A stretch of DNA of 64,000 bases, taken from positions 1 to 64,000 of IMG/VR virus record IMGVR_UViG_3300027839_000001; one strand, 5' to 3'. Below are positions 98 to 63,435 of this stretch, piece after piece. A program made the translations under genes and the position numbers. Each line of letters begins with the position of its first letter. Within the stretch, counting starts at the first letter, position 1. The notes below the pieces were generated by a model. It was not told the DNA's origin, made no database searches, and saw nothing but the letters and a program-made list of their open reading frames with translations. The stretch is from a virus.

Positions 98-118
98 GGA
101 ATTCTTTCCACTGTAAAG

Positions 119-573
119 ATGGTAGCTGTGAAATGTAAGCCGTGTTCTAGCTAACGAACATGATACCTAGCTTGCCTGCCAGTTCACGAAGGGACATGGT
201 GTCATTGGCACTGGCATAGCTGGAGCGTTCAAAGCTAACGACTTGAGATGCATTCTGTGCAAAGGGATCTTCATTGAGACGTAGCAGTGTAGTCTCTTGG
301 TCAATGATGAATGCATCGTCGAGGTGGCTAGGGTCGGCGAGGAAATCGCTGGCTGTAATATCAACCACCCGTTCTGAGTTGTCACCTGCTTGGCGTACCA
401 GTCCATTGACAATCATGAAGCAGAGAAGGCTGTTGTGATGCAGTGCTACGGTGCGGCCAGTGACGGGGGAATTGAGATCGACTTCGATGAGACGTAACAT
501 GGTAGTGTCCTTAGTAATGGGGTGAGGTAATGCGGGGTAATGAATGGTAGCTGTGAAATGTAAGTCGTGTTCT
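119..573. repeat. 30-bp direct repeat (119-148 and 544-573) flanking the 147..500 gene
   Basis: ATGGTAGCTGTGAAATGTAAG(C/T)CGTGTTCT, 29/30 identical, each directly downstream of a minus-strand stop codon. Confidence 0.9.
147..500 (-). CDS. hypothetical protein
   Basis: 117-aa ORF with AAGGA upstream; co-oriented with neighbours. Confidence 0.7.
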   Translation of the reverse strand: MLRLIEVDLNSPVTGRTVALHHNSLLCFMIVNGLVRQAGDNSERVVDITASDFLADPSHLDDAFIIDQETTLLRLNEDPFAQNASQVVSFERSSYASANDTMSLRELAGKLGIMFVS

Positions 574-767
574 TAGCGTGACATGTCGTCGAGCTTAGAG
601 TATAGCCTGTCGAGAAACTTGTTGGTCAGTTGGATACGCAAGCCACTGAGGTGATGGGGTGGGCATCGCGCCGCCTTGGCATGGTCAGCTATGGTCTGTT
701 CTAGCTGCCGAATGTATCGCTCGACGTTACGAACGCTGTCCCCTGCCAGTACGTCATTGATATGCAT
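573..767 (-). CDS. hypothetical protein (start trimmed to MHINDV)
   Basis: 3' part of ORF 573..884; ATG 767 is preceded by AAGGGA and the palindrome. Confidence 0.6.
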   Translation of the reverse strand: MHINDVLAGDSVRNVERYIRQLEQTIADHAKAARCPPHHLSGLRIQLTNKFLDRLYSKLDDMSR

Positions 768-835
768 GGCGGTATCCCTTGTGATGTTTCCACTGTAAAG
801 ATGGTGGCAGTGTGAACGAGGCGGTGAGACTGGCA

Positions 836-1333
836 TCACAGGTATCGGTGGAGATTCCTTATTGCATTGGTAGCAATGCGGCAATCACTATTGAACTTGT
901 CATTGCAATCTATGCCGGGGGAATTCAACTCGTCGATACCGTCAATCAATCTTATGCAGTCGGCGTAGAAACCATGGCCGTGCTTTGGTTCCTCTTCATC
1001 TGTTCTTAGCGATTCGAGACTGGTGAGTCCGACCTTGATGATAATACCACCGGGGTATTCTTCTTCGGTCTGTTCTATGATGTGCTTGATGCCCCTTGCC
1101 GAGCATACGAACTCGCAGTTCTCACCCTTGTAATCAATGACGACGTGCCAGCTACGGGTTGGTGGGTTGCGTGTCTCTGGTCCCTCGCATTCAGTGACAT
1201 GCCACCGGCATATTCGGTCGGGATCAATAGCGTCGATCCAATCCAGGGCACACTCATCAGTGCTGAAGGGACCGATGAGGTCAGCGGAATTGGTGAGGGT
1301 GGTGTCAGCGAGCTTGATTACATAGATGGACAT
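836..1333 (-). CDS. hypothetical protein (start trimmed to MSIYVIK)
   Basis: ATG 1333 lies 8 nt after palindrome 1342-1354; upstream part of the ORF is low-complexity Thr/Pro. Confidence 0.65.
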   Translation of the reverse strand: MSIYVIKLADTTLTNSADLIGPFSTDECALDWIDAIDPDRICRWHVTECEGPETRNPPTRSWHVVIDYKGENCEFVCSARGIKHIIEQTEEEYPGGIIIKVGLTSLESLRTDEEEPKHGHGFYADCIRLIDGIDELNSPGIDCNDKFNSDCRIATNAIRNLHRYL

Positions 1334-1395
1334 GGTAGTTCTTTCCAGTGTAAAGGTTGATGGTAGTGATGGAGTAGTGAGGTTGGTTGGTGGTG

Positions 1396-3424: not shown

Positions 3425-3545
3425 GGTGATTCTTTCCACTGTAAAGGTTGAGGTGATAAAAGCTACGGGAATTTTAAATGCGGTTACTACAGGCGAGGAT
3501 GGTTTGTTAACTAAAAAAAGATCCTTACAAAGGATCTGCGGAGAC

Positions 3546-4527: not shown

Positions 4528-6186
4528 GTAACCCTATACGTAGCAACTACTTACAAAGTAATCCTACTAAATTGATAGAATTTTAGTTTAGTGCTGTTAG
4601 TTGTATAAGCAAGCACCAGTCGAGCAGCGCACGACTGAAATTGTATGACATTATGGCAGTTTTGTAACCCTATACGCTGCAACTACTTACGTCACTTATG
4701 CGATATATTAACTGCCACCGATGGTGGTAGAATGCCGATAGTGTATCAAACTGCTACACTCAGACAACTTGTCTGATACCGGCACGGCTCAATAGTGTAT
4801 CGTAATCGTACACCATTATGGCAGGACAAAATGTCTGGTACTAGTCCTTAGGTAGTAGTTATTGTCAATTCTGACAAACGCCGCTAATGTAATACTTATG
4901 TAAAAGTGCCTCTAAGTCCTTTGATAGTAAGGGTTTAAGATTATTGTCGCACCCTCTTATGGGGTATACGTTAGACTGGCATCGAATTCTAAGTCAGTCA
5001 AGCTGACTGACCATAGGCAAGCTGACTGACTTAGAACATATCAGTAGTTGTTTATATTTCCACTGGAAAGAACTAGTCAAGCTGACTGACCCTTAGTCAG
5101 CTTGACTGACTTAGAATGGTTGGGATTAGTCGAGTTGTCTAGGGGTCAGTCAGTTTGACTGAATTTAAGGACGATAATAATAGACAACTTGACTATGGGT
5201 CAGTCAGCTCGACTGACTTTCCACTGGAAAGAAATAGACAACTTGACTATGGGTCAGTCAGCTTGACTGAATTGATGGTAGGATTAGTCGAGTTGTCTAG
5301 GGTATAGACGTTTTGACTAGTAAATCAAGTTTAGACGGTTTTTTACGGTGTTCTAGGCCGTTTTTTTGCCTTAAGCCAGTCAAGTTGTCTAGGGGTCAGT
5401 CATGTTGTCTGAAGTCTCACCGAATATGATGATATTATCACGCGAATAAGCAATTTTTCACCGTTTTTCATAGTTTTGTCGGGGTACTGCCGCAACTCGA
5501 CCATAAAAAAATAGACATTTCCACTGTAAACATACTTTAGACTTTGTAAAACTCTTACAGTACTTAAAGTATTAATCTTACCAAACTAACCACAGCTCGC
5601 CCGAACTACGGAGTCAACTTATTTGCTATATCTACCGCACAATGCTAGTCGATCTAAGGTTCCTAAAGGATCAAAGAGAGTTAGAGTATATCCACAACCT
5701 CCACAAAGTAACACAAAAACGTGCCCAACAATCTGGGTAACATCAACTAACCCTATACCTGTAAAGGACTTACGAACGCTGGTGATACCTCGATACCCTT
5801 AAGTTCATTCTCGCCGTAAACCTTTACGGTGGAACTACTTAGGTTCTCCGCTATAAATAAAACAGTTTTTACGAACACAAATACGTAAGTCGTTTAATAG
5901 TAACAAGTTAAATATAATTCATTCCCCTATTTCAGATATATTACTGATGTTAGCACACCCCCCCCCTACTTTTGTTTTTTTTAAAACGTAGGAGTACTTA
6001 CTCTACTAGTACTGCTATTCTTACCAGGCTTTACTCCTCTGTGGGCTTTATACAGGGGTCCACCTACACTGTAAAAATACATAGACCCCCTGGCGGTGTT
6101 TTTTTTGAAAGTAGACTACCCCAAGCAATCCCAAGGGGGGCAATTGTGCGATCCTCGACGTAAGTACTTTCGTACAGGCGACTTCG
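4528..6186. repeat. 27-bp imperfect palindrome family, TAA(C/A)CCT-TAC-N5-AA(GG/CT)ACTTA-like, ~7 copies
   Basis: Copies at 4528-4554, 4664-4690, 4912-4938 (inverted), 5747-5773, 5816-5842, 5885-5911 (inverted); weaker copy at 6160-6186. Confidence 0.7.
4996..5410. repeat. Phased array of seven pairs of a 13-bp palindrome AG(T/A)C(A/G)-N3-(T/C)G(A/T)CT; candidate origin or packaging site
   Basis: Pairs start at 4996/5015, 5075/5095, 5128/5148, 5182/5202, 5236/5256, 5286/5306, 5378/5398; singles at 4510 and 4762. Confidence 0.85.
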
Positions 6187-6974
6187 GACCTGATCGACCA
6201 ACTCTTTTTTTTTGCCATCCCTCTCGCGTGGGGTTCAGTCACCACCCATCGCTATAATTACCAATAGTTCCACTGGAAACATTCTAACGAGGGCAAGCGT
6301 GACCATGCCGTATCCCACATATACTATTGTCGTACTGGCACTGTATCCTATCGTAGTCTCAGAAACACTTTATAACATCCACCCTTTCACCGTAAAGGCT
6401 TTCGTCTCATCGGCTTACGGAGGAGAGGGTTGGACAAATTAAATCCTTTACCCCACTTGACAGCCCTATGCCCTTTATGGTAGACTATAATCTGCATGTC
6501 GACTTTCAGAAGATAACGCAACTCTCGACCCACCGGCACGCTAACAACGCTATCTCCACTAACCCACAATTCAAACCTTCACTACCATAACCACCCTCAA
6601 ATCACCATGCACAATCACAACCTCAAATCGGCATCCAACTCACTACCCCACATCCAATCCTACCTACCCCACCTCAACGCTAACCTAACCCGACCCCCTA
6701 CCCAGTATGATCTTACATCCTTCCAGCCCCGACCTCACACACGGCCTCTCAGGCCCCTTCTCGTCGACCTCTGTTATCCCGTACTAATCACCTCAATCCT
6801 TAACCTTCTTAAGCTCACAGCCTTACCTATCCTCTTGCCCATTCTACCATTATACTCACACCCCTCTCTCAAAAAACTTAATGTTGTATCTCAACTCAAC
6901 AGTCGATATAAAGTATGTAACCTTAACGCATCAGCCCCTAACCAAAAAATAATCCTTTACACTGGAAACAATCT

Positions 6975-7992: not shown

Positions 7993-8076
7993 TTTACACT
8001 GGAAAGTCCCCACATAAACACTACCTACCCAACAATCCCACACTTCACAGCACGCTCAGAACGAACAGGAGATAAC

Positions 8077-8892
8077 ATGCCAAGGAATGCAAACACTGTC
8101 GGCCATCTGCACGGTGCCGCATACAGGCCAGGAGTCACAATTAAACTTCCTAATGCCGGTCTACCTACTTCCGGCGAATCCTCCTCGCTCTCAACCAGAC
8201 TAGGAGATTCAGCGACCAAAAAGAAAAAGAAACTAGGAACAGGTAAAACCGTAAAGCTAACCAAGAAGAAACAAAACTCCCTCGCAGGCACAGCAGACTC
8301 ATCCCGTGTAGCCCACACTGCTACCGTAAAGGCAGGAACGGAGTTCACCTGGGGCAGTGCCGAGAACGGAGGCAACGGAGGGACCGCAGCTATTAAAACC
8401 CCATCGACATACGGCAAGCAGGACAACACCGGCTCACGTGCAAAGACTAAGGGCAGTGGCGGTGTACCTATGAACCAGCAATCACCGGCATCTCAAAACA
8501 GTGCAGCCAAACCAGACCAGATAGTGTCCGACGAAGAAGTTGCCATAATCATGACGGACATTGAAGAGTCGATCAAGTACGCCATGTTTGATCGAGCCAT
8601 GGAAGTCATAGCAACAGCACGGCAAGCGTTCATGTCACGTGTATCTATAGCTGACATGGAAATGCAGGACAAGCTTGAAGTCAGTCTAATGCAAGGAGGG
8701 TTGAACCCACGATTCGCTGGCATCCTCGCCGCCAACGGCATCGTCACTTTCTACGACGCACTCGTCCAGCCTCAATCATACTTCCTTGGACTTAAAAGCT
8801 TTGGGCCGCGTGGAGTCGAAGCACTTGTTTCCACTGTAAAGAAACACGGGCCATGGGAAGCCATGCAAGGCGTGTCTGGGAAATGCAACTAA
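8077..8892 (+). CDS. protein with Lys-rich N-terminus and C-terminal RNA polymerase alpha-CTD-like domain
   Basis: GLNPRFAGILAANGIVTFYDALVQPQSYFLGLKSFGPRGVEAL resembles alpha-CTD LSVRxxNCLxxxGIxTxxDL...LLxxxNFGxKSLxEI; AGGAG RBS. Confidence 0.65.
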   Translation: MPRNANTVGHLHGAAYRPGVTIKLPNAGLPTSGESSSLSTRLGDSATKKKKKLGTGKTVKLTKKKQNSLAGTADSSRVAHTATVKAGTEFTWGSAENGGNGGTAAIKTPSTYGKQDNTGSRAKTKGSGGVPMNQQSPASQNSAAKPDQIVSDEEVAIIMTDIEESIKYAMFDRAMEVIATARQAFMSRVSIADMEMQDKLEVSLMQGGLNPRFAGILAANGIVTFYDALVQPQSYFLGLKSFGPRGVEALVSTVKKHGPWEAMQGVSGKCN

Positions 8893-9918: not shown

Positions 9919-9924
9919 TTTACA

Positions 9925-11097
9925 GTGGAAATAAACGGAATCAACGAACAGATAGTAAAGCAGTGCAGTCAGCTTTACTTCAGGCAGTCAATGCTCAACG
10001 ACTTCCTGCTCTGTCCACAGATGGCAATGTACAGATGGGTCCTCGACATGGAAGAGTCGGAACCTTTCTACGCAGCCATCCTCGGTACGGCAGGACATGA
10101 AGTCGTGTACGAGATGCACGTTCGCAAGAAGCTAGACAGTACGTTCGGAGAACTGCTACAGGACTTCACTCGCTGTTACAACACAGAGATGGAGAAGCAG
10201 TCAACCAATCCTCCTATCCGTGCTGGCTGCGATTCCATAGAAGAGATGTTTGAAGAGAGCGCGTCTGAGTACATCCAGATGCTCCAAGGCTACCAAGAAC
10301 ACGAACGCAATCATGACTTCAGATCCACCATGCACGAACAGTCATTCGTACTGGAGATCCAAGACCCGATGTTCCCAGACAAGAAGCCTTACCTCTTCGT
10401 TGGTCAGATAGATCAAGGAGGAGTGTACGGTGATGGACTACGCAGCATTCGAGACATGAAGTTCAGGGCACAAGAGTTCAAGCCCTCTCGCGTTGAGTTC
10501 ATGCTGAACATGCAGATGACAATCTACTCAGCAGCAGTCAAGTGGGGCAACCCAGTCTGTCCAGAGTGCAAGCCTTGCTACGTTGACGATCCATTCGGTA
10601 TCAACAAAGAACTGGTATACAACGGGCCATGCGAAGACTGCCTAGCAATGGTAGGCACACCACGCTGGCCCCGAGAACTACCTGACGTAGTGGAGTTGGT
10701 TTGGATGAGAGACTTCATCCGTCGCCCCAAGGATCAGTACGCCAAGATGATCAAGGACAAGTCTTTACCCAAGGTCAAGTCAACCAAATCCAACAAGATG
10801 ATCATAGCCGAGAGGATATCAGACAAGTGGCTAGAAGGAGGAAAGAAAGGAGACTACATGGGGAAGTGCTTCATACCAGCGAAGCGAACCCCCGAGCAAG
10901 TACAGATCTACATGTCAGACGTAATACGGATCTGCCGTCAGATCCATCGAGGAGACTTCTGGCGTAACCCCGGTAGTCACTGCGAGTTCTGGTGTAAGCA
11001 CACAGATCAATGCACTGACGGACTGGAACTACAAGTAGAAGAAGCCCAGCTACACAACATCAAGTCGTATTCAAGCGAAGACCCGTTTGGAATGTAA
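9925..11097 (+). CDS. PD-(D/E)XK (Cas4/RecB-like) exonuclease
   Basis: N-terminal CP, GTAGH, GQID...RDMK, QMTIY, C-terminal C-x3-C-x5-C; extra CPEC...CEDC insert; GTG start lies inside the palindrome after AGGAG. Confidence 0.85.
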   Translation: MEINGINEQIVKQCSQLYFRQSMLNDFLLCPQMAMYRWVLDMEESEPFYAAILGTAGHEVVYEMHVRKKLDSTFGELLQDFTRCYNTEMEKQSTNPPIRAGCDSIEEMFEESASEYIQMLQGYQEHERNHDFRSTMHEQSFVLEIQDPMFPDKKPYLFVGQIDQGGVYGDGLRSIRDMKFRAQEFKPSRVEFMLNMQMTIYSAAVKWGNPVCPECKPCYVDDPFGINKELVYNGPCEDCLAMVGTPRWPRELPDVVELVWMRDFIRRPKDQYAKMIKDKSLPKVKSTKSNKMIIAERISDKWLEGGKKGDYMGKCFIPAKRTPEQVQIYMSDVIRICRQIHRGDFWRNPGSHCEFWCKHTDQCTDGLELQVEEAQLHNIKSYSSEDPFGM

Positions 11098-11194
11098 CAG
11101 GAGATTTACAGTGGAAACTTTAACTGGGCAGCAGGCGTAATAAACTACCAAATGTTTCCTTTGATGAACACAACAGAGAAAGAAGAGGACAGTA

Positions 11195-11788: not shown

Positions 11789-11819
11789 AGTGGGTCCATA
11801 ATCACGCGGAGAATTTCCA

Positions 11820-12635
11820 ATGGAAAAGCAAAAACCTAGTATCATTCAAGATCAGTCGCGTGCTGACACAGCAGGAGTAGAGTCAGTCAAGGTGGTAGTT
11901 CCAGGGAAGGAGCAGGCCACCACCTTGACGCCCAAGACCAGGGTAAGGCCAGAGATGGTCAAACGCAAGCCCGGCATGTCAAATAAGAAGACGGCAGCGG
12001 GCGTCACAGCAAGAGAGCCAATCAGTGTCATCTACAAAGAAGAGGATATAGGCAAGGAGTTAATAAAGAAGATCATATCTTGGTACGCAGTGGGAGACGC
12101 ACCGCTACACAAGATTTTAAGAATGGCTAACGAGCAGCGTAACGCTCAATGTCGCGGCGACCTGTACTACCTAGACGTGTACTCCATACTGTTTAATCAG
12201 TACAGAACAAAGGTAATAGTCCAGAGGACCAATAGACATCAGGGTGAAATGCTACTCACTGAGTTCGCTACGTTCTTCAAGAAGTTCAGAGAGGGACACA
12301 AGTTCAACGATTGCCTCAGGGCAATAGGAACAACATACTCACTCAATTTCTGCAAGAAGATCTACCAGCAGCTACTGAAGAGATGGAAGCAGGGTAAGTC
12401 GAGGAGCGATCAAGAGTCGGAAGAGTCGGAGAACGCAAGGCAGGAACTACTCGACCTGTCAGTCATTAGGCATGTTCAGGGAAAGGCGGCGATAGTAATC
12501 TTCATCCGAGACATACCCGAGGACCTAAAGGATTCCATCGCCAGAAACATCCCAGGCATATCTTTAGATACAGTCTCCGATAAGGTCGATGAATCAGGCC
12601 GTGTCGATAAAGAAAGCGAGGGTAAAGATGACTGA
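11820..12635 (+). CDS. hypothetical basic protein
   Basis: 271-aa ORF; ATG lies inside palindrome variant TTTCCAATGGAAA, after GGAG. Confidence 0.75.
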   Translation: MEKQKPSIIQDQSRADTAGVESVKVVVPGKEQATTLTPKTRVRPEMVKRKPGMSNKKTAAGVTAREPISVIYKEEDIGKELIKKIISWYAVGDAPLHKILRMANEQRNAQCRGDLYYLDVYSILFNQYRTKVIVQRTNRHQGEMLLTEFATFFKKFREGHKFNDCLRAIGTTYSLNFCKKIYQQLLKRWKQGKSRSDQESEESENARQELLDLSVIRHVQGKAAIVIFIRDIPEDLKDSIARNIPGISLDTVSDKVDESGRVDKESEGKDD

Positions 12636-13707
12636 CGTGAAGGAATGCGAGATGTCGAATTTCAGAGTATGGGCTATTCCCTCTTATGAGGAAGTTGATG
12701 CCCCTGAGATCGCAAACGGGATCAAGTGGACTCAGTCCAGGGGCCTGCCAGGACTACCGTGTAAGAGATCCGTAGTGTTCATCAACTACAGAAGGGACAG
12801 GGACTGGGCACTTGCCCTTGAAGTTTACACTGGAAACAAGACCGTCAAGGAAGCGGCAGTTCTAGAGCCTTTCTTTAATGAAGCTATCCATGTATTGGAC
12901 TTCACTCCTTCTCGGCCTCTTCAGCCTGAAGATCTAATGAAGTCAGTTCAAGACGCAGCGATACTGTCAATCTCTGCTTACAACGAGTCCGTCATGGCAG
13001 TCTCATCGACCCTGACCGAAGCTGACATAGAGGCATTATGTACAGACACAGCATTACTATGGGTGACCAGCTTTATAACAGCACCAGAACTGGCAGAGAA
13101 CTTTATTGGCTTCATAAGGGACGTTGACTTTTTCGTTGACGACATGTCCTCATATGGAGCGACGGTAAAGCTAGTAACCAGTGGAGAGATGGTCAACTCA
13201 GCCATTAAGATGACGGGTGCCTTAGATCCTAACATTCACACAGGACTCTTTGGTAACGCAGATCTCATGCCGTTCCACTCAGCTATATGGAAGAAATGCA
13301 TAGCCGAGAGAAGAAATATAATGCTGGCGTTTCCCACGAACCCATCAAAGATTTCTCCTGATGTCCACCCCGTTACTGGGGAAGGCGTACTCCCGCCTGC
13401 TGGCTACATGGTATTCGACACGCGGAAGTCTACCAGTTTAGTTGCGAGTTTCGCGGTTGAACCTGACTGGAGAGGTGCCGGTCTAGGTACATGCATGATC
13501 AGAAACTTCTTCAAGCTGTTCACTGGCAGCTTGACGTTCATACTGGATATAGACAGCGACACTAACCTCAACCTAGCTGGCTTCCTAAAGTCGGTAGCAA
13601 AGAAATTAGATAGGAAAATGAACGTAAGGGTAGTAGAACCAAAATTATTAACTGCACTGCCGGGGGAAAAGACGAGTGACCACCACATGTGGATTGAGCT
13701 TAAGTGA
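12628..13707 (+). CDS. protein with C-terminal GNAT (RimI-like) acetyltransferase domain
   Basis: GYMVF...SFAVEPDWRGAGLGTCMI acetyl-CoA-binding motif A (RxxGxG), followed by an N-containing motif B (DTNL). Confidence 0.75.
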   Translation: MTDVKECEMSNFRVWAIPSYEEVDAPEIANGIKWTQSRGLPGLPCKRSVVFINYRRDRDWALALEVYTGNKTVKEAAVLEPFFNEAIHVLDFTPSRPLQPEDLMKSVQDAAILSISAYNESVMAVSSTLTEADIEALCTDTALLWVTSFITAPELAENFIGFIRDVDFFVDDMSSYGATVKLVTSGEMVNSAIKMTGALDPNIHTGLFGNADLMPFHSAIWKKCIAERRNIMLAFPTNPSKISPDVHPVTGEGVLPPAGYMVFDTRKSTSLVASFAVEPDWRGAGLGTCMIRNFFKLFTGSLTFILDIDSDTNLNLAGFLKSVAKKLDRKMNVRVVEPKLLTALPGEKTSDHHMWIELK

Positions 13708-13762
13708 TAATAAGGTCCCCAGGCTTAACATTTCCAGTGTAAACTTTTTTCTCTAGCCCCTA

Positions 13763-13791
13763 TTGACAAGAAGATTATTTTCTGGTATAAT
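13763..13791 (+). promoter_or_regulatory. consensus sigma70 promoter for the SSB-like/parB operon
   Basis: TTGACA-17 bp-TATAAT with extended -10 TG; palindrome at 13731-13743 ends 19 bp upstream of the -35. Confidence 0.9.
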
Positions 13792-52274: not shown

Positions 52275-52323
52275 CCTGCGCAGGCGAAAGGTGTCCGCAT
52301 TTCTTTCCACTGGAAATTAGAGT

Positions 52324-53214: not shown

Positions 53215-53231
53215 TTTACACTGGAAATAAA

Positions 53232-55835
53232 ATGACATCAGACGAATCCATAGTAATCAACGGCGTGGAGCAGGAAGGCGGCAGCCGCAGTGTTGCCTAC
53301 ACCTACGGCGGGGAGATATGTCCAGACTCAGCGAACTTTGGGTACGTACATGGACCCTCTCCATCAGTAGCTACTCTATCCCACACTGAAGCCATAGACG
53401 CACCAATGGGTTCAGACCTTTCTCTTCAGGTTGGGGTTGCACAATGGAGAGGGTTCGTCATTCAAAGCACAAAGACGCTAGATACGGAGACTGGCGAGAC
53501 TTACAGCATACGAGCGCACGACTGGAGAGACAGGCTGCACGACGTGTGGTTCTTTGCTGCATTCAACATGCATGAAGACGACGGCAGGGTGTGGCACATG
53601 CCGGAACACCTGTGGGAAAATCAGACCAAGGTATACATCTCTAAAGAACTCAGTCAGGTAGACATAGACGATCTACAGTTCTTCGAGGAAGACATAGAGG
53701 ACCCGGCATACAACGACCTGCTTGAGAACCTTCTTGGAGAGAGCTACATAAGTGCAGCAAGCATCATAGAGATACTCGGCCTAAAGCACGAGTTCATATG
53801 GGCAGCAGAGGAGAGAGTATTTGAAATACTAGACGAAGCTGTGCCCATGAACATGGACTGGATATCTGGCGTAAAGGTAGTAGACGCCCTACAGCAGGTG
53901 CTTGAGTCGTGCGGCCTTCAGTTCACCATATACGGTGAAGATGTAATCATGATCACACTAAGGGGATGGACTAGCGAGGAGCTTGTCAACCAGTACATGG
54001 CAGGTCTTGACGATCCATGCATATGGGGTGCGAATCAGATTTCCACTGGAAAGGAATTGAACATGAAGGGCAGGAGAGTCTTGCTCGTCGGAGGAAAGAA
54101 CACGCAGCAGTGGACGTACCCATGCAGGCAGAACTGGAATGCCAACTGGGACTGGCAGCTATGCTATGGTGGATGGCAACTAAGTGCATTCCTTAAAACT
54201 AATTTCAACTCAGAGGGACAGAGTCTCACTAGATGGAGCAAGATAAAAGAGCTACCAGAAGAATACCATGACCACAATCTATGGAGTGATGGCGTAAAGG
54301 TTCAAGGCGAAGGGGCTGTCGACCTGAAGAGAACAAGGATGGAGATGACAGTACAGGAGTATATCGACAAGGTGGCGTGGAAGGTTTACATAGTTGACCC
54401 TAACTGGTCAGTCAGTGAGATGAACCCGGCCCCTGAACTCAACACCGATTTTGACGCGCTGGGAGAGGAACCCTACTACAATACCATTCTGCAAAAGATG
54501 GACAAAGAGACGCTCGTGCCTGAGAATACTTATCGCGGAACAGAGGCAACCGTGACTCTGCCTGGTGATCCGCAACCGGAGTCGCTGGATGAGATCGACG
54601 ATGTAGAGCTTGCATTATTTCCAGTGGAAGAATGGGACGATTCAGAAATAGAGTCGAACATAGACAACGGATTCACCGGCGATTATAACTTCTCATTCCC
54701 TGTATACAACAAGCTAAACACAGACACGAACCTGAAGATGCTTCCATATATAGCTACGAGGAGAATCCTTGGCGGCATGGAGTCAGCACTTGATAGACAG
54801 GTTACGGTGGTCCCAGTCACCAAGGGAGTGACTATCACAGAAGAAGAAGTCATAGACCCCAAGACACACAGGTCTGTCTTCAGATTAAGACTGGTGTTCT
54901 CTAATGCACAGTTCTGGATCGATGAGGACATGGACTTCAGGAAGATGGATAGCAGAAAGGCTGACAGGATAGTGGTCACGCTGGCTCATGGCAAGGACAT
55001 GTATACACATGAGGCAGGAGAAGAGATAGGGGCTGTGTTTGATAGGGGTCCAGGTCCAGAGCAAGGCTTCCAGCAAAACGCACGGATACGAACACAAAAG
55101 CACAACATACCTACACTGCACAAGGCTTTTGTGGATGGTGGTGAGTACAATGTTCTCGCAGAGAACTTCAGGCTAGACCTTGAAAACGGTGGGTCAGAGC
55201 CAGCAGTGAGGCCAATCAATGCCGATGCGGTTGCAGGCAAGATCTCACACCAGCTATTGTTCCACGATGCTATCAACCGTACAGGATACATGGAGTTCGA
55301 TGAAACTACGGGAACCCTGCCAGATGGAATGATCGAATCAGTATCCGTACGATTCAGTGCAACAAATGGCATTACGGAGCGTGTTAATTACACAGGTGAG
55401 GAGATAGATGACAACCTGATACGGGCACCTTTCAGGATAGGAGCAAGCAGGCTGGTCAATGATCTTGAAGATATAAACAGAGACATTCTTAATTCAGTTC
55501 TCCCTCTAATATCAACTAAGGTGCTGAATCAAGCATCGAAGAAGGACTCAACAAGTTCCGATCTAGGAATATCCGATACGTCCACCGAGGAACGTAGGAT
55601 GATAGAGTTCAACAATGCCGGTGCCGATAAAGCTGTCGTTGAGGTCAAACTGGAAAGGACGCACATGCAAATGAACGAGGCACTGGCGTGGGAGGGGATA
55701 GTTAAGCATGGAGTAGTGGTAATAGGTGAAAGAAATCGACCAAAAGAAGGTGTGTACTTAGACCCTCGGTGGTCATACGATATCGAATCATACTTAGAAG
55801 ACCTTCAGGCCCTTTACGACGCGGAGGGTGGATAG
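53232..55835 (+). CDS. putative baseplate hub / central tail protein
   Basis: 867 aa; QWRGFV...YSIRAHDWRDRL N-terminal pattern typical of hub proteins. Confidence 0.55.
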   Translation: MTSDESIVINGVEQEGGSRSVAYTYGGEICPDSANFGYVHGPSPSVATLSHTEAIDAPMGSDLSLQVGVAQWRGFVIQSTKTLDTETGETYSIRAHDWRDRLHDVWFFAAFNMHEDDGRVWHMPEHLWENQTKVYISKELSQVDIDDLQFFEEDIEDPAYNDLLENLLGESYISAASIIEILGLKHEFIWAAEERVFEILDEAVPMNMDWISGVKVVDALQQVLESCGLQFTIYGEDVIMITLRGWTSEELVNQYMAGLDDPCIWGANQISTGKELNMKGRRVLLVGGKNTQQWTYPCRQNWNANWDWQLCYGGWQLSAFLKTNFNSEGQSLTRWSKIKELPEEYHDHNLWSDGVKVQGEGAVDLKRTRMEMTVQEYIDKVAWKVYIVDPNWSVSEMNPAPELNTDFDALGEEPYYNTILQKMDKETLVPENTYRGTEATVTLPGDPQPESLDEIDDVELALFPVEEWDDSEIESNIDNGFTGDYNFSFPVYNKLNTDTNLKMLPYIATRRILGGMESALDRQVTVVPVTKGVTITEEEVIDPKTHRSVFRLRLVFSNAQFWIDEDMDFRKMDSRKADRIVVTLAHGKDMYTHEAGEEIGAVFDRGPGPEQGFQQNARIRTQKHNIPTLHKAFVDGGEYNVLAENFRLDLENGGSEPAVRPINADAVAGKISHQLLFHDAINRTGYMEFDETTGTLPDGMIESVSVRFSATNGITERVNYTGEEIDDNLIRAPFRIGASRLVNDLEDINRDILNSVLPLISTKVLNQASKKDSTSSDLGISDTSTEERRMIEFNNAGADKAVVEVKLERTHMQMNEALAWEGIVKHGVVVIGERNRPKEGVYLDPRWSYDIESYLEDLQALYDAEGG

Positions 55836-55851
55836 TTTCCACTGTAAACAT

Positions 55852-56925: not shown

Positions 56926-58929
56926 ATGGATAAGTTCGGAGTCAGCAGGTGCTGCTGTGGTGCTAGGTATCTCAAGTGTGATTGCAGTCTCGTATGCACT
57001 GAAGGGACTACACCCTGTTGTGTAACGATCACAATAGAGGGTGCAGAGAATCTACCGGCAGATAACTTCGCACACTGCAACGAGTGCGAGAGCCTTAACG
57101 GCACATACATACTCACATCCAACCTTGATAGCTGCCACTGGAGGGGAAGTCTGTGCCAGAACGGCGGAACTGCAAGGCCGGGAGTGTGCTGTGCATATGA
57201 GCATGTCGAGCTTATTTACAGAGACAGACTTCCATTCTCTGGTGAAGAGGAAGGGCATAGATGGTATCTTACTTTCGTAAACGGACCTACCTATACGGCA
57301 GAACATGATCATGACCCAGAGGATCTCGACGATCCAGAGTACAAGATAAACTGTGAGTCATTGTCACTTACAATGGAGGCCACTGCATCTGATATAGAGG
57401 CAGAAACCACTGAATTCTGGTGTAAGTTTCCACTGGAAATCACAGTCAGGACTAGCTCGTCCGATGCCAGATCAGGATGCATTGAAGAGTACACTTGCAG
57501 GGACGACACCGGCTCTAGGTGGCCTCGGTGCGACTGCTGGGACCTCCCTTTGTCGTACACGGTTAGCTTCGATGAGGATATTATACTCAAAGAACATGAA
57601 GCCGAGGAGGATGAGTGCGTAATAGGCGATGTCTTAAGCGACCTTAATAGTCCACTGACTCTCAGGTACAAGACCGCATACTGGTCAGAAACGGCTGGGC
57701 CATGGGGTATTTCTGAAAGGCTCGCATACGATCAAGCTAGGCTTGACTGCATTATAGACATAGGATCGTTCACCAAGATCAACGCACTCGGTCCTTCGTG
57801 CCAGCCAGGCCAATATGTTGGCGTCGAGATGTGGATCACAAGGATGCCGACATTGACGGTGCCAACGGTTCCGTTTCAGTTTGACCTAGCTGCCGTTATT
57901 GCATTCGTTGAATTCGATGAGCTAGGAGAGAAGACATACAGTGCATATCTTTGGAAGAGAGTCTCATCTGACTGTTCTTCACCTAGCCCTGAGACGCATT
58001 GGTCAGAGAGAAGCGGGTGTGAGTGCACTGGAACCATAGGCGACTCAAGTGGATGGGAACTAGTTGAGTCAGGTGACGTTCTCCGAACAACTGACGACGG
58101 AGGATTCGACCCAATACAGATAGTGCCATCTGAGATATACGACTTCTCGGATCTTTCCACTGTAAATGTTAGCTTCCCAGAAGACACAGACAACTGCGGT
58201 GACAACGATCCCTGTCCAGAAGATGGGTGCATGACCTGTATAGATGACTACAATACAGGGCCAGTTAATATCGGAGTTGAGTTCCAGGCCAACACAAAAG
58301 CACCTGAGACGCCAGAGCCTCCACCTGGGCAGTTCATATTTCCACTGGAAATCAACGGAGATTGCGAGGACTCATGCCCACACCTAGAGTCTGGCATGTA
58401 TGTTCTTGAGTACAATAATGGCAATGGTGGATCAGGAGTCAGATGCTTAGGGGGCGATGTCTGGACCACGATAACAACGGAAAGAAATGACCTTGGACAG
58501 TCAGTGTCCGTGCCAAAGAAGGTTTATAGCGGTGGTTGCTCCTGGAGGTACAGGGTAGAAGGATTCTCTGGGTGCGGAATGTACAGAATATCGCTCGGTA
58601 ACTACACTATAGGAGCCGACCCATACCACTGGATAATCAGACTTGCGATTGGTGGAAATCAGAACTTCAATGCGCAGAATCCTACGGTTTTTTCGACGAC
58701 TTGGAGCCTTATATTCGAGACACAGATACCGATCCTGTCTGAAATAGGGGGAGTGCAGGCCAGTACTCCTGAGCAGACCAAGTACCTGATGATGGAGCAA
58801 CTAGACGGTCTAGAGCTTGAGTTGGTGAGCCAGCGCAATGGAATGAGGAACCAGCAGATAGTGTTCAGTGAGGCGTGCCACATAGACGAGACAACAGATG
58901 CGGCACCAGTGATACTGAGGACACTATGA
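56926..58929 (+). CDS. Cys-rich putative tail-tip protein
   Basis: 667 aa; N-terminal CCCG; repeated C..C..LNGxYxL..CxW modules. Confidence 0.7.
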   Translation: MDKFGVSRCCCGARYLKCDCSLVCTEGTTPCCVTITIEGAENLPADNFAHCNECESLNGTYILTSNLDSCHWRGSLCQNGGTARPGVCCAYEHVELIYRDRLPFSGEEEGHRWYLTFVNGPTYTAEHDHDPEDLDDPEYKINCESLSLTMEATASDIEAETTEFWCKFPLEITVRTSSSDARSGCIEEYTCRDDTGSRWPRCDCWDLPLSYTVSFDEDIILKEHEAEEDECVIGDVLSDLNSPLTLRYKTAYWSETAGPWGISERLAYDQARLDCIIDIGSFTKINALGPSCQPGQYVGVEMWITRMPTLTVPTVPFQFDLAAVIAFVEFDELGEKTYSAYLWKRVSSDCSSPSPETHWSERSGCECTGTIGDSSGWELVESGDVLRTTDDGGFDPIQIVPSEIYDFSDLSTVNVSFPEDTDNCGDNDPCPEDGCMTCIDDYNTGPVNIGVEFQANTKAPETPEPPPGQFIFPLEINGDCEDSCPHLESGMYVLEYNNGNGGSGVRCLGGDVWTTITTERNDLGQSVSVPKKVYSGGCSWRYRVEGFSGCGMYRISLGNYTIGADPYHWIIRLAIGGNQNFNAQNPTVFSTTWSLIFETQIPILSEIGGVQASTPEQTKYLMMEQLDGLELELVSQRNGMRNQQIVFSEACHIDETTDAAPVILRTL

Positions 58930-59363
58930 CCGACAAATGCGTGTTCGACAGAGAGGGAGATATCGCCACTTGCACCATCTGCGATAGATCCGTAAAGGTT
59001 CCTGTACATATAAAGACCTTCAAGATCAACAGGGCCTGCACGGGATTTCCAGTGGAAACAAAGGAGTTCCCGCCCGTATATATACAAGCCTGGAACTATG
59101 CAGTGTCAACATTCTGGCATCTATTCAATCTATGCAGGCATGCAGGCAAATCGGTTGTCGCCAGGAGATTTACGCAGTGCAAGCCGTGCGACTGGTACAC
59201 AGGCAAGGGCGACGGTGACAAGCGTGGAAGGTGCATAGGATGCGGGTGCCCAGTCAATGACGTTGACGATGGCACTCATCCCAATAAGCTCAACAGGCTA
59301 TGGGATACATGCCCGTACAAGGAAGATAAAAAACGCAAGCCGAAGTGGTTGCCGATAGAGTAA
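58926..59363 (+). CDS. Cys-rich small protein (possible tail-fibre chaperone / metal-binding)
   Basis: ATGA overlap; CTIC, RxxxCKPC, CIGCGC, TCP...KW. Confidence 0.65.
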   Translation: MTDKCVFDREGDIATCTICDRSVKVPVHIKTFKINRACTGFPVETKEFPPVYIQAWNYAVSTFWHLFNLCRHAGKSVVARRFTQCKPCDWYTGKGDGDKRGRCIGCGCPVNDVDDGTHPNKLNRLWDTCPYKEDKKRKPKWLPIE

Positions 59364-60360: not shown

Positions 60361-60754
60361 GACCAATCTAATACTGGTTGCCGGACTTGCCTTCAGTTTA
60401 TACTTCACATTTTCCAGTGGAAATAGTGTATTCACTGACACGTTCTCCGATGTAACCAAAGAGATATCAACCGAGTGGGTGATTCCAAGGTCAGGAAGAG
60501 AGTCTTTCTGTACTGCATTGACCGAGGCTGCTGCACTTACAGATGCAACACCTAAGGACATGTACAAATCAGTCAACCCACGGTTCATGGAGCTTGAGAC
60601 TCAGGACGTTACGATTGGGTGGATTGCATTCAGGACAGACCTGATGAACAAGTCTCGTTCACTTCACAATGTCGGTCGATTACCACTGGATAAGCCAGTC
60701 AAGCACGGTGCCTACATAATGGCAGTCAAAGCTGGCATTGAAGCCGCTAAATAG
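60344..60754 (+). CDS. exported/anchored hypothetical protein
   Basis: Basic N-terminus plus hydrophobic helix; GAGGA RBS. Confidence 0.6.
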   Translation: MTRKSKTNLILVAGLAFSLYFTFSSGNSVFTDTFSDVTKEISTEWVIPRSGRESFCTALTEAAALTDATPKDMYKSVNPRFMELETQDVTIGWIAFRTDLMNKSRSLHNVGRLPLDKPVKHGAYIMAVKAGIEAAK

Positions 60755-60768
60755 ATCAGGAGTTTACA

Positions 60769-61713
60769 GTGGAAATTGCCAAGAAGTACATGATAGGAGA
60801 CATGAGCGGGTGGAGGCCAGATCCTAAGCATGCCGCCAACTTCGCAGGTAGAAACCGAACGCCACTGTTCGGTGTATCAGCACCCTTGATCATGAATCAG
60901 CCACGTCGAGAGGTATTCCTTCCGGCGTATCTTTCCATGGTCATGCGAGAGAAGGATAAGGAATGGCGGTATAAATCGCAGTACCAGAAGCGTGGCACGT
61001 GCGTCGGTCAGGGATATAAGCTGTCATGTGACATCGTAATGGCTGTCAACCGACTGATCGGCGGCATGAGATTTCCAGGCCGAGCAGCAGTAGCACCCAT
61101 ATACGCCGGTAGCAGGGTAGAGGTGGCGAATCAAGCGGGCCGATGGGACGGCAGCAATGGTAGCTGGGCATCAGACTGGGTCACAAAATACGGTGTCGTT
61201 CTACTGAAGGAACTGGGCCTACCTGAAGATGCACTCGATTCAGATGAGAAGTTCGCTACGTCATGGGCAGCAAGATCATCAGGCGTACCGGCAGAATACG
61301 AAACGGCTGCACGAGTACGACCAATCAAGAACTCATCACTTGTAACTGACACTGATGAGGTAGCTGCTGGATTGGGAAACCTTCAGCCTGTTCCTATCTG
61401 CACCAGCCTGATCCCTTCACCTAATCGAAACAGGGACGGCATAGCAAGAATGTCCTCTCAGGGCGGGCACTGTACTGTCATTGTAGGCATGCGCAAGGTC
61501 GGAAGAAACTGGGTGTTCGCCTATCACCAGTCTTGGAACGGCTGGGCCAAGGGACACTACGGTTGGCAGAAGCACGATCCAATTAAAGAGTATTCAAGTT
61601 GCATTGTCGATATAACTGAAAGCGACCTAGCCAAGGTGCTTAGGTCAAGAGACTGTTACACGTTGATGGGAGTCAGCGGCACGGAGCCGATTGACACCAC
61701 GTTCTTTATCTAG
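60769..61713 (+). CDS. papain-like (C1) cysteine peptidase
   Basis: QKRGTCVG (Gln...catalytic Cys), GGHC (His), QSW; GTG start inside the palindrome. Confidence 0.78.
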   Translation: MEIAKKYMIGDMSGWRPDPKHAANFAGRNRTPLFGVSAPLIMNQPRREVFLPAYLSMVMREKDKEWRYKSQYQKRGTCVGQGYKLSCDIVMAVNRLIGGMRFPGRAAVAPIYAGSRVEVANQAGRWDGSNGSWASDWVTKYGVVLLKELGLPEDALDSDEKFATSWAARSSGVPAEYETAARVRPIKNSSLVTDTDEVAAGLGNLQPVPICTSLIPSPNRNRDGIARMSSQGGHCTVIVGMRKVGRNWVFAYHQSWNGWAKGHYGWQKHDPIKEYSSCIVDITESDLAKVLRSRDCYTLMGVSGTEPIDTTFFI

Positions 61714-61724: not shown

Positions 61725-62252
61725 ATGGACACAAAGTCAAGCCTTATCCTCGGAGGCGCTGCTATCATCGCTGCCGCAGCCTTCATGTTTCCACTGGAAA
61801 AAACAGCCGCATCGCCTGACCCATACGCAGCAATGACCGCTGAAGTCCTCAGCGATATTGTCACCCTTCGCTCTCGCGTCAGTGACGTAGAGGATCAGTT
61901 GGCAAGCTTAAGTTCTGAAGTGAATGGAATCGCTGGCTACGTAGACGAACGAGTCGATGGAATGAATAAGGAAATCATGAAGGGTAGCGGCTCAAGCAGT
62001 GAATCAAAAATCATTAGCGAAGAAGAATGGGAGGTGATCGCATCTAGAGGTGGCGTCAAGGTATGCGATGAGAATGGATGTCGCATTCAATACTCACCTG
62101 CCTATAACATGGAACACCACTCCTCAGGCTCAATGAGTTCAAGCTCAAGTTCCAGTGGAAATGGCATCTTTGGCTCTGGCGGTAACAGGCGTGCCAGAGT
62201 TGATGCGCGACGAGAAGACCGATGTGGACTGTTTGGTCGCAAGTGCAACTAG
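61725..62252 (+). CDS. signal-anchored coiled-coil protein
   Basis: Hydrophobic N-terminus, coiled coil, Ser-rich tail, CDENGC. Confidence 0.65.
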   Translation: MDTKSSLILGGAAIIAAAAFMFPLEKTAASPDPYAAMTAEVLSDIVTLRSRVSDVEDQLASLSSEVNGIAGYVDERVDGMNKEIMKGSGSSSESKIISEEEWEVIASRGGVKVCDENGCRIQYSPAYNMEHHSSGSMSSSSSSSGNGIFGSGGNRRARVDARREDRCGLFGRKCN

Positions 62253-62322
62253 AGAGTTCATGATACATGTACGTTACCACATTGCGATGACTTAATCCTA
62301 TCACATAAGCTGGTTGTTAACA

Positions 62323-62667
62323 ATGATTTTTAAGCCAGACAGTAAAGTGGGGCAGGCAGTGAAGAATATAACAGAGTCTACTCCAGTTAGCATAGCGCTA
62401 GTACTTGCGCTATGTGCTGGAGCGTATTGGACAGGCGGAGAGCTTACTGACCTGAAGTCTCGCGTTAGTAATGCTGAAGCAATAGGAAAAGACAACAGGG
62501 AGCTTCTAAACCAACTTACGGAAATATCTGTAGACAACAAGCATAGAATAGATATTTTCGTTGAGAGAATGCTGATGGATGATCGTCGTGAACTTCACGA
62601 CACGGATCTTCTTAATTCATTTCAAAGGAGAATCACAGCACTTGAGGCAAAGTCCAGTGGTAGCTAA
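62323..62667 (+). CDS. membrane-anchored coiled-coil protein
   Basis: TM VSIALVLALCAGAYW followed by heptads. Confidence 0.6.
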   Translation: MIFKPDSKVGQAVKNITESTPVSIALVLALCAGAYWTGGELTDLKSRVSNAEAIGKDNRELLNQLTEISVDNKHRIDIFVERMLMDDRRELHDTDLLNSFQRRITALEAKSSGS

Positions 62668-62704
62668 GACGTAGTTGAACTATACCCTTATTTAAGAGGA
62701 GAGC

Positions 62705-62896
62705 ATGATGGAGCTAATGAAATGGCTGCAAGGAAAGAAAACCTACATAATCGCAATCGCAATGGGAGTCATGGCGATGCTAAAACAGTTGGAGGTTATC
62801 GATCAGGCAATGTTCGATACGCTACTGACATTACTGAGCGGCGGTGGACTCGCTTCGTTCTACGCAATGATGAATCGAAAGAAAGTTGAAAAGTAA
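62705..62896 (+). CDS. small two-TM holin-like protein
   Basis: WLQGKKTYIIA pattern, two hydrophobic helices, basic C-terminus; dual Met start. Confidence 0.6.
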   Translation: MMELMKWLQGKKTYIIAIAMGVMAMLKQLEVIDQAMFDTLLTLLSGGGLASFYAMMNRKKVEK

Positions 62897-63435
62897 TGAA
62901 CATGACAGCAGAACCCCATGATCAGGAAGTTGAAATGAATGACTCACTGACAGAAGTATTCCGAAAGCTTAATCAATCAGGCTTAGAGTACTCAGTCATC
63001 TCTGATTGGAGCACATTGCCTCGGGCATTTCCAGACTCGATGGTAATGCTAGTCAAAGATGCAGAGCGCGTAGCACAAATCCTCGGATGCTCTCAGTTCA
63101 GAGCGACACACCCAGTTATAAGTGTGTCGATTTCCACTGGAAATCTTTCTGAAAAGAACTGCCTTGTTACCCTTATCGAGAAGGGGTCGGGTGCATTTCC
63201 TGAACAGTTCGAGTCGAGAGTTCTCAAGCGGCGTGTCCTTCATGAGGATGTTGTCTACGTACCGGACAACGAGGAGCAGGCTTTGATCTGCCTGTATGTC
63301 GTCATGAGATACGGTAGCTGGGGTTCAATGAGACTCTCCGATAAGTTTGAATCGAAGATGATCTTGGATTACCTGAGCAATCGAGTCGGTAACTTCACGA
63401 CGCCACGAATAGATTTGCTGCGGAATTCAATGTAG
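62896..63435 (+). CDS. hypothetical protein (possibly degenerate nucleotidyltransferase fold)
   Basis: 179 aa; VFRKLNQSGLEYSVI...LP pattern, but no DxD. Confidence 0.55.
   Translation: MNMTAEPHDQEVEMNDSLTEVFRKLNQSGLEYSVISDWSTLPRAFPDSMVMLVKDAERVAQILGCSQFRATHPVISVSISTGNLSEKNCLVTLIEKGSGAFPEQFESRVLKRRVLHEDVVYVPDNEEQALICLYVVMRYGSWGSMRLSDKFESKMILDYLSNRVGNFTTPRIDLLRNSM

Follow-up and report, generated by a model that had tools for sequence, protein, structure and literature searches.

What is the role of a 13-bp palindrome that recurs about once per kilobase along a viral chromosome, within genes as well as between them? The question is raised by the first 64 kb (64,000 nucleotides, hereafter the window) of IMGVR_UViG_3300027839_000001, the complete 86,403-bp IMG/VR record of a tailed, uncultured marine phage whose genome has a 99-bp terminal repeat, and in which a preliminary description had noticed the palindrome TTT(C/A)CA-N-TG(G/T)AAA. 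We report that the palindrome and its density have been kept by selection acting on the DNA, and we propose, with a probability of roughly 0.6, that it is a site of the same type as parS, the Noc-binding site (NBS), and the KorB operator, which would be read by a dimer of a ParB-family protein of the phage itself. The candidacy of ParB follows from the conservation of a parB gene in all three phages that carry such a lattice of sites and from the presence of the same palindrome beside bacterial par genes.

Number, sequence, and spacing of the palindromes

Searched as the pattern TTTMCANTGKAAA, the palindrome matches exactly 62 times in the window, from position 105 to position 63143, where dinucleotide-preserving shuffles lead one to expect 0.02 matches, and the whole genome holds 85 copies; the figure of about 62 that the preliminary description had reached by eye was thus correct. 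Copies with one mismatch are also in excess (12, compared to 1.0 expected), and copies with two mismatches are at the chance level (12, compared to 10.5). No base in the flanks beyond the 13 bp carries information, on which ground an origin as a mobile element or miniature inverted-repeat transposable element was rejected. A DnaA box (TTWTNCACA) was likewise considered, given that TTTMCAC fits its positions 2-8, and was ruled out because position 9 is always T in the phage and because T is the rarest base at position -1.

The centre base is C or G at 80 of the 85 sites, and of the 170 halves 122 have C at position 4 and 48 have A. Two A-type (weak) halves occur together at a single site, compared to 6.8 expected if the halves were independent, and each site apparently needs a strong half on at least one side; the side on which the weak half lies has no orientation relative to the coding strand (24 versus 22). 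Two asymmetries of composition were also observed. Read on the plus strand, C prevails at the centre between 0 and 60 kb and G between 60 and 86 kb, a switch that does not simply track gene orientation, as sites in the leftward genes at 0-4.4 kb share the C, and the base next to the strong half is C in 34 cases and G in 11, a roughly threefold difference. 

A hairpin of RNA or DNA was rejected as the unit of recognition, since variant sites are unfolded and the variation is not of the wobble type. The perfect site can fold weakly into a stem of 5 bp and a loop of 3 nt (-2.4 kcal/mol), and the C/A variant sites, which are about half of all copies, do not fold (0 kcal/mol), with variants yielding C·U or A·G mismatches and not wobble pairs. 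Because the C/A variant breaks base pairing, the unit that is read is, judging from the sequences, the half-site on duplex DNA. The preliminary description had excluded a hairpin on the ground of the 1-nt centre; its conclusion stands, as the variants do not fold, but its reason does not, as the perfect site can form a 3-nt loop. Its reading of the palindrome as double-stranded DNA bound by a dimer is favoured by the broken pairing of the A variant and by the scarcity of doubly weak sites (1 of 85).

Over the whole genome, the gaps between neighbouring sites have a mean of 1016 bp and a coefficient of variation (CV) of 0.456, compared to a mean CV of 0.98 under random placement, where the lowest of 20,000 simulations was 0.67 and none reached the observed value. 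The gap distribution has a gamma shape of 4.7, gaps shorter than 300 bp number 4 where 21 are expected, and the longest gap, 3513 bp, shrinks to 1785 bp once one-mismatch copies are included. In the window, 41 of 61 gaps measure 0.7-1.4 kb, in agreement with what had been said of most gaps, and the regularity that had been suspected holds against a Poisson expectation. Near-copies had also been described as filling the longer gaps; those at 15647, 41340, 42061, and 54618 differ by one mismatch, whereas the one at 29945 has more than one. Gene length does not explain the regularity, since 85 random picks from the 112 gene starts give a spacing CV of 0.97.

Constraint within genes and placement at gene borders

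When synonymous codons were shuffled within genes, 1.5 copies (maximum 5) remained on average compared to the 55 observed, and each of the 55 amino-acid-compatible positions, in three frames, carries the motif. Frame 1 is the commonest and gives peptides of the type [FILV]-S-[ST]-[GV]-[KN], and frames 0 and 2 yield F-[PT]-[LVM]-E and the looser [FL]-[HQ]-[WC]-K. As no compatible position is left unused, the data suggest that the encoded peptides have themselves been shaped by the requirement on the DNA, which agrees with the earlier claim that selection acts on the DNA and not on the protein. The lattice is costly to the phage, whose codons, and probably amino acids, are held fixed at 55 protein positions, which implies a strong benefit.

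Genome-wide, 31 of the 85 copies are intergenic or straddle a gene end, a five-fold enrichment given that 7% of the DNA is non-coding, and 54 lie fully inside genes, in all three frames (as had been claimed for the window) and on both strands. The junction placements are of three kinds, in which the site follows directly after a stop codon, places the GGA of its right half 4-7 nt before an ATG, or supplies a start codon by its central GTG or ATG. We read this as the placement of each site where it costs least, with the site doubling in function where possible.

The phage and its relatives

Apart from tape-measure, portal-like, and putative terminase genes, the phage encodes a split RecD2-like helicase, a PD-(D/E)XK nuclease, an SNase, MazG, a tyrosine integrase, an SNF2 ATPase, and a sigma-70-family factor, and most of its proteins have no family assignment. 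A Pfam overview of all 112 proteins detected no DNA polymerase, methyltransferase, ParA, or Orc1/Cdc6. The sigma-70-family factor and the Shine-Dalgarno-type starts make a bacterial host likely. At least eight marine or seawater runs, spread over several years, contain nearly identical DNA, and contigs of four seawater runs, compared over 20 kb, show the population to be almost clonal.

Megablast of 12 kb against INPHARED found no close cultured relatives. The best cultured matches of the primase, in Bacillus, Microbacterium, and Arthrobacter phages, reach only 21-25% identity, and among cultured phages the ParB-family protein P0001 matched only distant ParBs and its divergent paralogue P0002 nothing. 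Queries of viral contigs with the primase, a P0002 alignment, and P0018 also found no relatives. Relatives were instead found by scanning public contigs for two motif copies 140-200 bp apart. Two contigs, G004 (33.7 kb, 28 sites, spacing CV 0.43, a value reached in none of 10,000 simulations) and L166 (13.3 kb, 12 sites, spacing CV 0.59), carry the motif at about 1 per kb and are syntenic over a nuclease, a gp34-like gene, parB, sigma, RecD2, and primase genes, with G004 extending to the terminase and portal. Their proteins are 27-49% identical to those of the phage, and their nucleotide similarity is confined to just two short blastn matches of 66-69% identity.

Four in-gene sites fall at the same or nearly the same codon in the phage and in G004 (primase 354/349 and 812/812, the gene at 26339 at amino acid (aa) 93, and the terminase at aa 68), and the remaining sites have shifted position. 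The motif and its density are thus maintained across a divergence at which synonymous positions are saturated, being kept at 27-49% protein identity with almost no similarity of DNA. The preliminary description had put selection on density along the genome and had named conservation in relatives as a check; spacing is sub-Poisson here and in G004, and motif and density are kept in both relatives.

Candidate readers encoded by the phage

The candidate reader in the window is P0001 (14959-16335, plus strand), which matches Pfam HTH_ParB at 2e-16 (60.4 bits, compared to a cut-off of 22.6) and, by phmmer, the Spo0J structure 1vz0 at 1.7e-15 over residues 9-218, with Noc and ParB structures also matched; Pfam ParB_N was not reported in it at E <=0.01. 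Its box II, G87-F-C-R90, aligns to GERR with the E and the first R replaced, and its box III, E125-N-L-H-R129, aligns to ENLQR. By these alignments P0001 is a ParB-family protein, with a predicted CTPase-type N-domain and a ParB helix-turn-helix (HTH). Box II is conserved as GFxR across the three orthologues, and those of G004 and L166 also keep ENLxR and the S-x-S-H/N-A/G-R helix, with a sigma gene adjoining and a lattice site about 30-60 bp upstream. The N-terminus of P0001 has no ParA-interaction motif LG[KR]GL, which is present in the canonical ParB rows of the alignment, and no ParA, CbiA, or AAA_31 was found among the 112 proteins. Since both ParA and the ParA-binding motif are lacking, this is not a ParABS partition system.

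The second candidate, P0002, lies outside the window (genome 71637-73499, minus strand) and is a divergent ParB paralogue. It has no Pfam match when searched alone, and it belongs to a family of about 60 clusters whose profile (30 members) aligns with the ParB profile at an hhalign probability of 99.1% (E 1.3e-18, 149 columns). The family has a roughly 55-aa insertion in the N-domain and the invariants G101, R104, and N190, and its FSHAR corresponds to GHAR. P0002 has a long Asp/Glu tail and stands directly upstream of the gene for a 1265-aa SNF2-family ATPase (the two genes together at genome 67814-73499, minus strand), with which it could form a pair of DNA-binder and remodeller.

Palindromes beside bacterial par genes

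When 185,579 species, each represented by one genome, were scanned for paired motifs, 60 loci came back, among them many tandem repeats and at least ten archaeal origins; most matches of the paired scans of genomes and metagenomes are tandem repeats (period 32-42 bp) or CRISPR-like (period 76 bp) and unrelated to the phage. Five Streptomyces species (L033, L063, L039, L074, L029) share a conserved orphan ParB of 447 aa, with ParB_N and HTH_ParB, which has six CCGTTTCCAnTGGAAACGG palindromes around it, three upstream and the others inside or downstream, and a RapZ-C-like gene adjoining. It appears to be an undescribed paralogue with a site of its own. Alcanivorax has the order parA, parB, two sites, and a second parB (L049:3300-4400), and Planctomycetota the order two sites, parA, and parB. 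An 8.4-Mb Pirellulaceae genome contains four copies of the motif, each at a distance of 0.9-2.6 kb from the same parB paralogue. These bacterial par loci lack canonical parS, NBS, and KorB operators. The Alcanivorax locus also has two palindromes with the same arms and a 2-bp centre (6+2+6, TTTCCACGTGGAAA-like), which suggests that the site family tolerates both 1-bp and 2-bp centres.

A further observation concerns Verrucomicrobia, in which a Limisphaerales metagenome-assembled genome (L018, L021, L064, L065) and Prosthecobacter (L071) have several tandem arrays of 5-6 copies of a 41-42-bp unit, each unit containing TTTCCAATGGAAA, with no ParB within the 8-kb loci. The layout recalls that of the sopC centromere of plasmid F.

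The palindrome shares T2-T3-T4-C5 with parS (TGTTTCAC-GTGAAACA) and T2-C6 with NBS (TATTTCCC-GGGAAATA) (PMC7383237). Residue 201 is glycine in all ParB orthologues and, in Noc, an arginine that reads cytosine 6 (Jalal et al., PMC7383237). The residue is serine in P0001, both its orthologues, the P0002 family, and the Streptomyces ParB, and the planctomycete ParB has R201 and Q173 as in Noc, with A1 and C6 in its sites. This pattern fits the known rules of specificity, short of proof.

Sites and other features of the window

The sites listed here are exact matches of the pattern, have no strand assigned, and take their context from rough gene calls, which place 27 copies between genes or at junctions and 35 inside genes, in place of the 34 and 28 given previously. 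Intergenic sites lie at 105-117, 787-799, and 5518-5530. Sites in genes lie at 1342-1354, 2244-2256, 3433-3445, 6956-6968, 8828-8840, 12824-12836, 14308-14320, 19551-19563, 28648-28660, 31109-31121, 31984-31996, 34057-34069, 34818-34830, 35931-35943, 37827-37839, 39987-39999, 45924-45936, 54040-54052, 57427-57439, 58154-58166, 58339-58351, 59046-59058, 60411-60423, 61788-61800, and 63131-63143. Among genes that can be named, the RecD2-like helicase gene has a site at 21522-21534, the portal-like gene at 29397-29409, and the tape-measure gene at 43768-43780. The primase-helicase (21880-25182, plus strand), which unites a DnaG zinc ribbon, Toprim, an MCM P-loop, and a weak C-terminal winged-helix match and is a rival candidate for the reader, has sites at 22934-22946 (aa 354, with the counterpart at aa 349 in G004) and 24308-24320 (aa 812, the same position in G004). 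Also at the same position in G004 are the site at 26610-26622 (gene 26339, aa 93) and that at 27448-27460 (aa 68), which lies in the Walker A-like SGFSTGKS of the putative terminase, as the preliminary description had noted.

At gene borders, sites follow a stop codon directly at 7993-8005, 17380-17392, 36765-36777, and 47659-47671, lie at junctions at 11105-11117, 20410-20422, and 33201-33213, join a stop to a start at 21857-21869, and occupy a gene overlap at 55836-55848. The central GTG is the likely start codon at 9919-9931 (with GGAG just upstream), 25191-25203, and 60763-60775 (both after AGGAG), as is the central ATG at 11814-11826. An ATG follows after 4 nt at 40255-40267 (that of the tape-measure gene), 46925-46937, and 53215-53227, after 5 nt at 18641-18653, where the GGA of the site can act as ribosome-binding site, and 44790-44802, and after 7 nt at 52304-52316, and the last base of the site at 38699-38711 is the A of the next ATG. 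One-mismatch copies fill long gaps at 15647-15659 (inside parB), at 41340-41352 and 42061-42073 (both in the tape-measure gene, in its 3.5-kb gap), and at 54618-54630, and the others start at 6267, 7203, 18330, 21348, 35126, 48218, 59385, and 62149.

Around parB, a site at 13731-13743 lies 19 bp upstream of the -35 of a sigma-70-type consensus promoter (13763-13791, plus strand; TTGACA, 17 nt, TATAAT, and a TG extension, 12/12), which precedes the gp34-like, ParB, and sigma genes. The Pam3 gp34-like gene (13898-14887, plus strand) is a conserved neighbour of parB in G004 and L166, and a site at 14891-14903 lies 56 bp upstream of the parB start. Between parB and the gene of the sigma-70-family factor (region 2; 16498-17379, plus strand), which adjoins parB in G004 and L166 as well, stands the sole site with two weak halves (16426-16438). 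A promoter and terminator scan of the phage gave matches no commoner than in shuffles.

The helicase is split over 18659-21856 into a gene with an N-terminal HHH and SH3 part and a motor gene, with MazG and a small gene between them; both halves have homologues in G004 and L166, and L166 also has MazG between. In the divergent control region (4996-5410), which holds lattice sites at 5057-5069 and 5218-5230 (the latter within a doubtful 50-aa open reading frame), a second palindrome with AGTCA/GCTGACT-like arms is repeated, and a 13-pair stem at 5075-5107 is interleaved with the two sites; the region may be an origin or an array of immunity operators. A direct repeat of about 27-40 bp (48852-48891 and 50503-50542, at least CGATTTACAGTGGAAATAAAATGCTTG) is centred on two lattice sites, with 48868-48880 in its left and 50519-50531 in its right copy. 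The segment between holds one gene, at a G+C of 0.545 compared to about 0.49, and looks like a swapped-in tail gene cassette with lattice sites at its joints. The only tRNA call, at 49348-49438, is 91 nt long, lies inside a gene, and is probably false.

Proposed mechanism and its implications

In the mechanism that we propose by analogy with known members of the family, a ParB-family dimer would nucleate at each palindrome through its two half-sites TTT(C/A)CA, close into a nucleotide-dependent clamp, and slide or spread to neighbouring DNA, so that a loading site every 1 kb or so would keep the whole phage chromosome covered. Such continuous cover would account for selection on evenness. The coat might serve genome-wide silencing or timing of transcription, protection from nucleases or marking of the DNA, or compaction. 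The conserved pairing of parB with a sigma gene and the pairing of P0002 with an SNF2 ATPase suggest transcription control or the remodelling of a nucleoprotein coat, and shielding or self-marking of the phage DNA may equally be its role.

ParB-family CTP clamps serve segregation (ParB), division-site placement (Noc), and plasmid gene silencing (KorB), and those known start from few sites or from sites tens of kilobases apart. A bolder proposal, which we offer tentatively and think somewhat doubtful, is that orphan ParB-type clamps coat the entire viral chromosome and nothing else as a kind of phage chromatin, with the Cluster O mycobacteriophages discussed below as members of the same, as yet undescribed class. 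Spacing would then be set by the distance that a clamp travels before opening, and the coat could be a mobile platform for the neighbouring phage sigma factor, in the manner in which the sliding clamp of T4 serves late transcription, or alternatively a self-mark against host defences and the phage's own nucleases. If the main proposal is right and the sites load a ParB-family protein, whole-genome ParB loading at 1-kb resolution would be an unusual use of a segregation protein, the common but so far unexplained orphan ParB genes of phages would gain a function, and a testable account would be at hand for the Cluster O repeats, which the 2015 paper left unexplained and on which no follow-up was found in the literature searched. 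The selected spacing would also measure how far such clamps act, and the protein-site pairs could possibly be orthogonal ones for DNA labelling of the ParB/parS type. Our literature search turned up no paper that reports these 13-mers for a phage, nor any on ParB sites spread over whole phage genomes.

Alternative explanations

Several points weigh against a ParB-family reader. Box II of P0001 is GFCR and not GERR, and the binding or hydrolysis of CTP may, from this sequence, differ or be lost. Judged by bit score, P0001 is as far from the motif-linked bacterial ParBs as from ordinary chromosomal ones or farther, and there is thus no phylogenetic tie of one ParB subfamily to the palindrome. 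The link between palindrome and ParB consists of co-occurrence and the logic of the family, and it points to P0001 and P0002 alike; the G004 and L166 fragments do not extend to the P0002 region. Two further points, the palindrome of an unrelated group of phages and that of archaeal origins, speak for rival explanations.

The first rival, which we consider unlikely, is that the reader is a dimer of another kind (a host regulator, the ParB of a resident plasmid, or a small phage protein) and that the phage exploits or titrates this factor; the many phage proteins without family assignment leave room for it. An unrelated marine podovirus-like group, group B (G001, G002, G005, L077, L114), has an extended form of the palindrome, AAGTTTCCAsTGGAAACAA, ahead of every early gene; its 9 copies all fall within 5.4 kb of the roughly 20 kb available, in which no ParB was found, and no protein of the group is recognisably shared with the phage. 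The extended palindrome also forms arrays in marine Shewanella and Halomonas, again without a ParB detected close by. The available part is, however, about 55% of the group B genome, and a reader of its own may lie in the remainder. Its extended site can fold as an RNA hairpin (-5.8 kcal/mol) and may thus be a different element with a chance likeness, in a search in which 2.9 million viral contigs were scanned for exactly this motif. The conservation of ParB genes in all three lattice phages and the motif at bacterial par loci argue instead for a ParB reader. As side observations, the group B phage at L008:1400-6800 (the same phage as L007, with relatives L013, L077, and L114) has a T7-type primase-helicase, PolA, and an SU10/P22-like portal, and its early-gene unit reads TAA-AAGTTTCCAsTGGAAACAATTGAGGA-N7-9-ATG, in which a 6-bp RNA hairpin is possible; the Shewanella array matched only an insertion sequence element in PLSDB.

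Distinctly improbable, in our estimate, is a replication lattice, in which the palindromes would be loading or priming sites for the primase-MCM helicase of the phage, about one per Okazaki fragment, and in which palindromy would let a site serve either fork. Prokaryotic Okazaki fragments are of the order of 1 kb, and the phage has a fusion of DnaG-type primase and MCM P-loop helicase whose C-terminus gives a weak winged-helix match (CggR_N, E 0.029), has no detected DNA polymerase, and shows the switch of centre base from C to G at 60 kb that gene orientation does not simply explain. Moreover, archaeal origin recognition boxes have TTTCCAsTGGAAA as their core, and the helicase is of the MCM type. 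At least ten archaeal matches are motif pairs about 150-180 bp apart, with a GGGGT string after one copy in most of seven examined, and the 13-mer lies within primers upstream of radA in Thermococcus, whose oriC is placed beside radA and cdc6 (PMC11005403). However, no Orc1/Cdc6-like protein was detected among the 112 proteins, the G-string that full origin boxes have is absent from the phage sites, the motif-bearing group B phages encode a primase-helicase of the T7 type instead, and the bacterial motif arrays adjoin par genes and not replication genes. Known primase recognition sites are, in addition, short and asymmetric.

A signal for expression or recombination at gene borders, such as a translation start, an RNA element, or a module boundary, with the in-gene copies incidental, is very unlikely. 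It would accord with the enrichment of sites at gene ends, many of them between a stop and the next start, with the likely start codons at 9919, 11814, 25191, and 60763, with the right-half GGA 4-7 nt before the ATG at 18641, 40255, 44790, 46925, and 53215, and with the two copies in the direct repeat that flanks a GC-richer gene. Yet 54 copies lie wholly in genes, in three frames and on both strands, with about one internal copy per kb in long genes, a random choice of gene starts gives a CV of 0.97 and not 0.46, and the variant sites have no RNA structure; a bias toward junctions is in any case expected if sites about 1 kb apart go where cost is lowest.

Hardly credible is a by-product of the host, whether a hyper-abundant word of the kind of HIP1 or an uptake sequence or a bias of repair or restriction-modification, for although two unrelated phage groups from marine samples share the palindrome, no bacterial genome in the scan of 185,579 species showed a dispersed high density (all that came up were local arrays, tandem repeats, and archaeal origins), the five genomes that were counted completely contain 3-14 copies each, the group B motif is restricted to the early region, no methyltransferase was detected, and even spacing and conserved positions are unexpected from mutational bias.

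Comparison with known systems

The preliminary description had named KorB operators, Noc sites, and mycobacteriophage stoperators as comparators, an apt choice; the two ParB-family genes of the phage and the bacterial par loci that carry the same palindrome are further evidence. The archaeal origin boxes have an identical core, TTTCCAsTGGAAA, as in the primers of PMC11005403, but they occur in few copies per origin, usually with GGGGT beside one copy, and are bound by the AAA+ winged-helix initiator Orc1/Cdc6, whereas the phage has 85 copies, no G-string, no detected Orc1/Cdc6, and a sigma-70-family factor. With no Orc1/Cdc6 family found by Pfam and no information in the flanks, the phage site was rejected as an archaeal origin recognition box.

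The stoperators of Cluster A mycobacteriophages are 13 bp long, number 24-36 per genome, lie in many cases in short intergenic spaces, and are bound by one phage repressor that silences the prophage genome-wide (in part summarised in PMC4351075). They are asymmetric, oriented with transcription, and unevenly spaced, and their reader is the immunity repressor; the phage site is palindromic and unoriented.

Noc of Bacillus subtilis resembles the phage ParBs in being an orphan without ParA, in having palindromes over the whole replicon, and in its non-glycine residue 201 (PMC7383237, PMC8429893). The half-sites of NBS (TATTTCCC-GGGAAATA) and of the phage share TTTCC, but NBS is 16 bp long with an even centre and the phage site 13 bp. 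Noc has about 70 NBS in 4.2 Mb, or about one per 60 kb, compared to one per kb in the phage, and it has a membrane-targeting helix and a role in cell division, neither of which is evident in the phage.

By analogy, KorB on plasmid RK2 is the nearest mechanistic model. Its operator, OB (TTTAGC-G-GCTAAA), is like the phage site a 13-bp palindrome built as 6+1+6 with TTT...AAA ends, and KorB is a ParB-family CTP clamp that loads at OB, slides, and acts at a distance, in gene silencing and not in partition alone (PMC11790492). RK2 and the phage alike have multiple sites spread over a mobile element of 60-86 kb. The 12 OB sites in the 60 kb of RK2 lie at or near promoters and are uneven, whereas the 85 sites of the phage are even and mostly off promoters. 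Moreover, KorB works with ParA (IncC), KorA, and TrbA, and the phage has neither ParA nor a recognisable KorA; box II is GERR in KorB and GFCR in P0001. Examined for silencing of the KorB type, the phage has one site 19 bp upstream of a consensus -35, and most of its sites lie in tight stop-to-start junctions or in genes.

The nearest published phenomenon is the set of repeats in Cluster O mycobacteriophages such as Corndog, a siphovirus of about 70 kb, in which more than 30 17-bp dyad repeats of unknown function are distributed genome-wide, with about a third in genes, most off promoters, and no parA (PMC4351075). Their sequence, TGTTCGG-N3-CCGAACA, differs from that of the phage site, their density of 1 per 2 kb is half that of the phage, and their spacing in Corndog is uneven (CV 1.06, computed here, versus 0.46). 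The authors of that study did not connect the repeats with gp90 (PMC4351075). We found that Corndog gp90 (L195:9425-10933), annotated as 'ParB-like nuclease domain protein', has a ParB N-domain (GQRR, ENDQR) and an HTH (hhalign 97%), which makes gp90 a candidate reader of the 17-bp Cluster O repeats.

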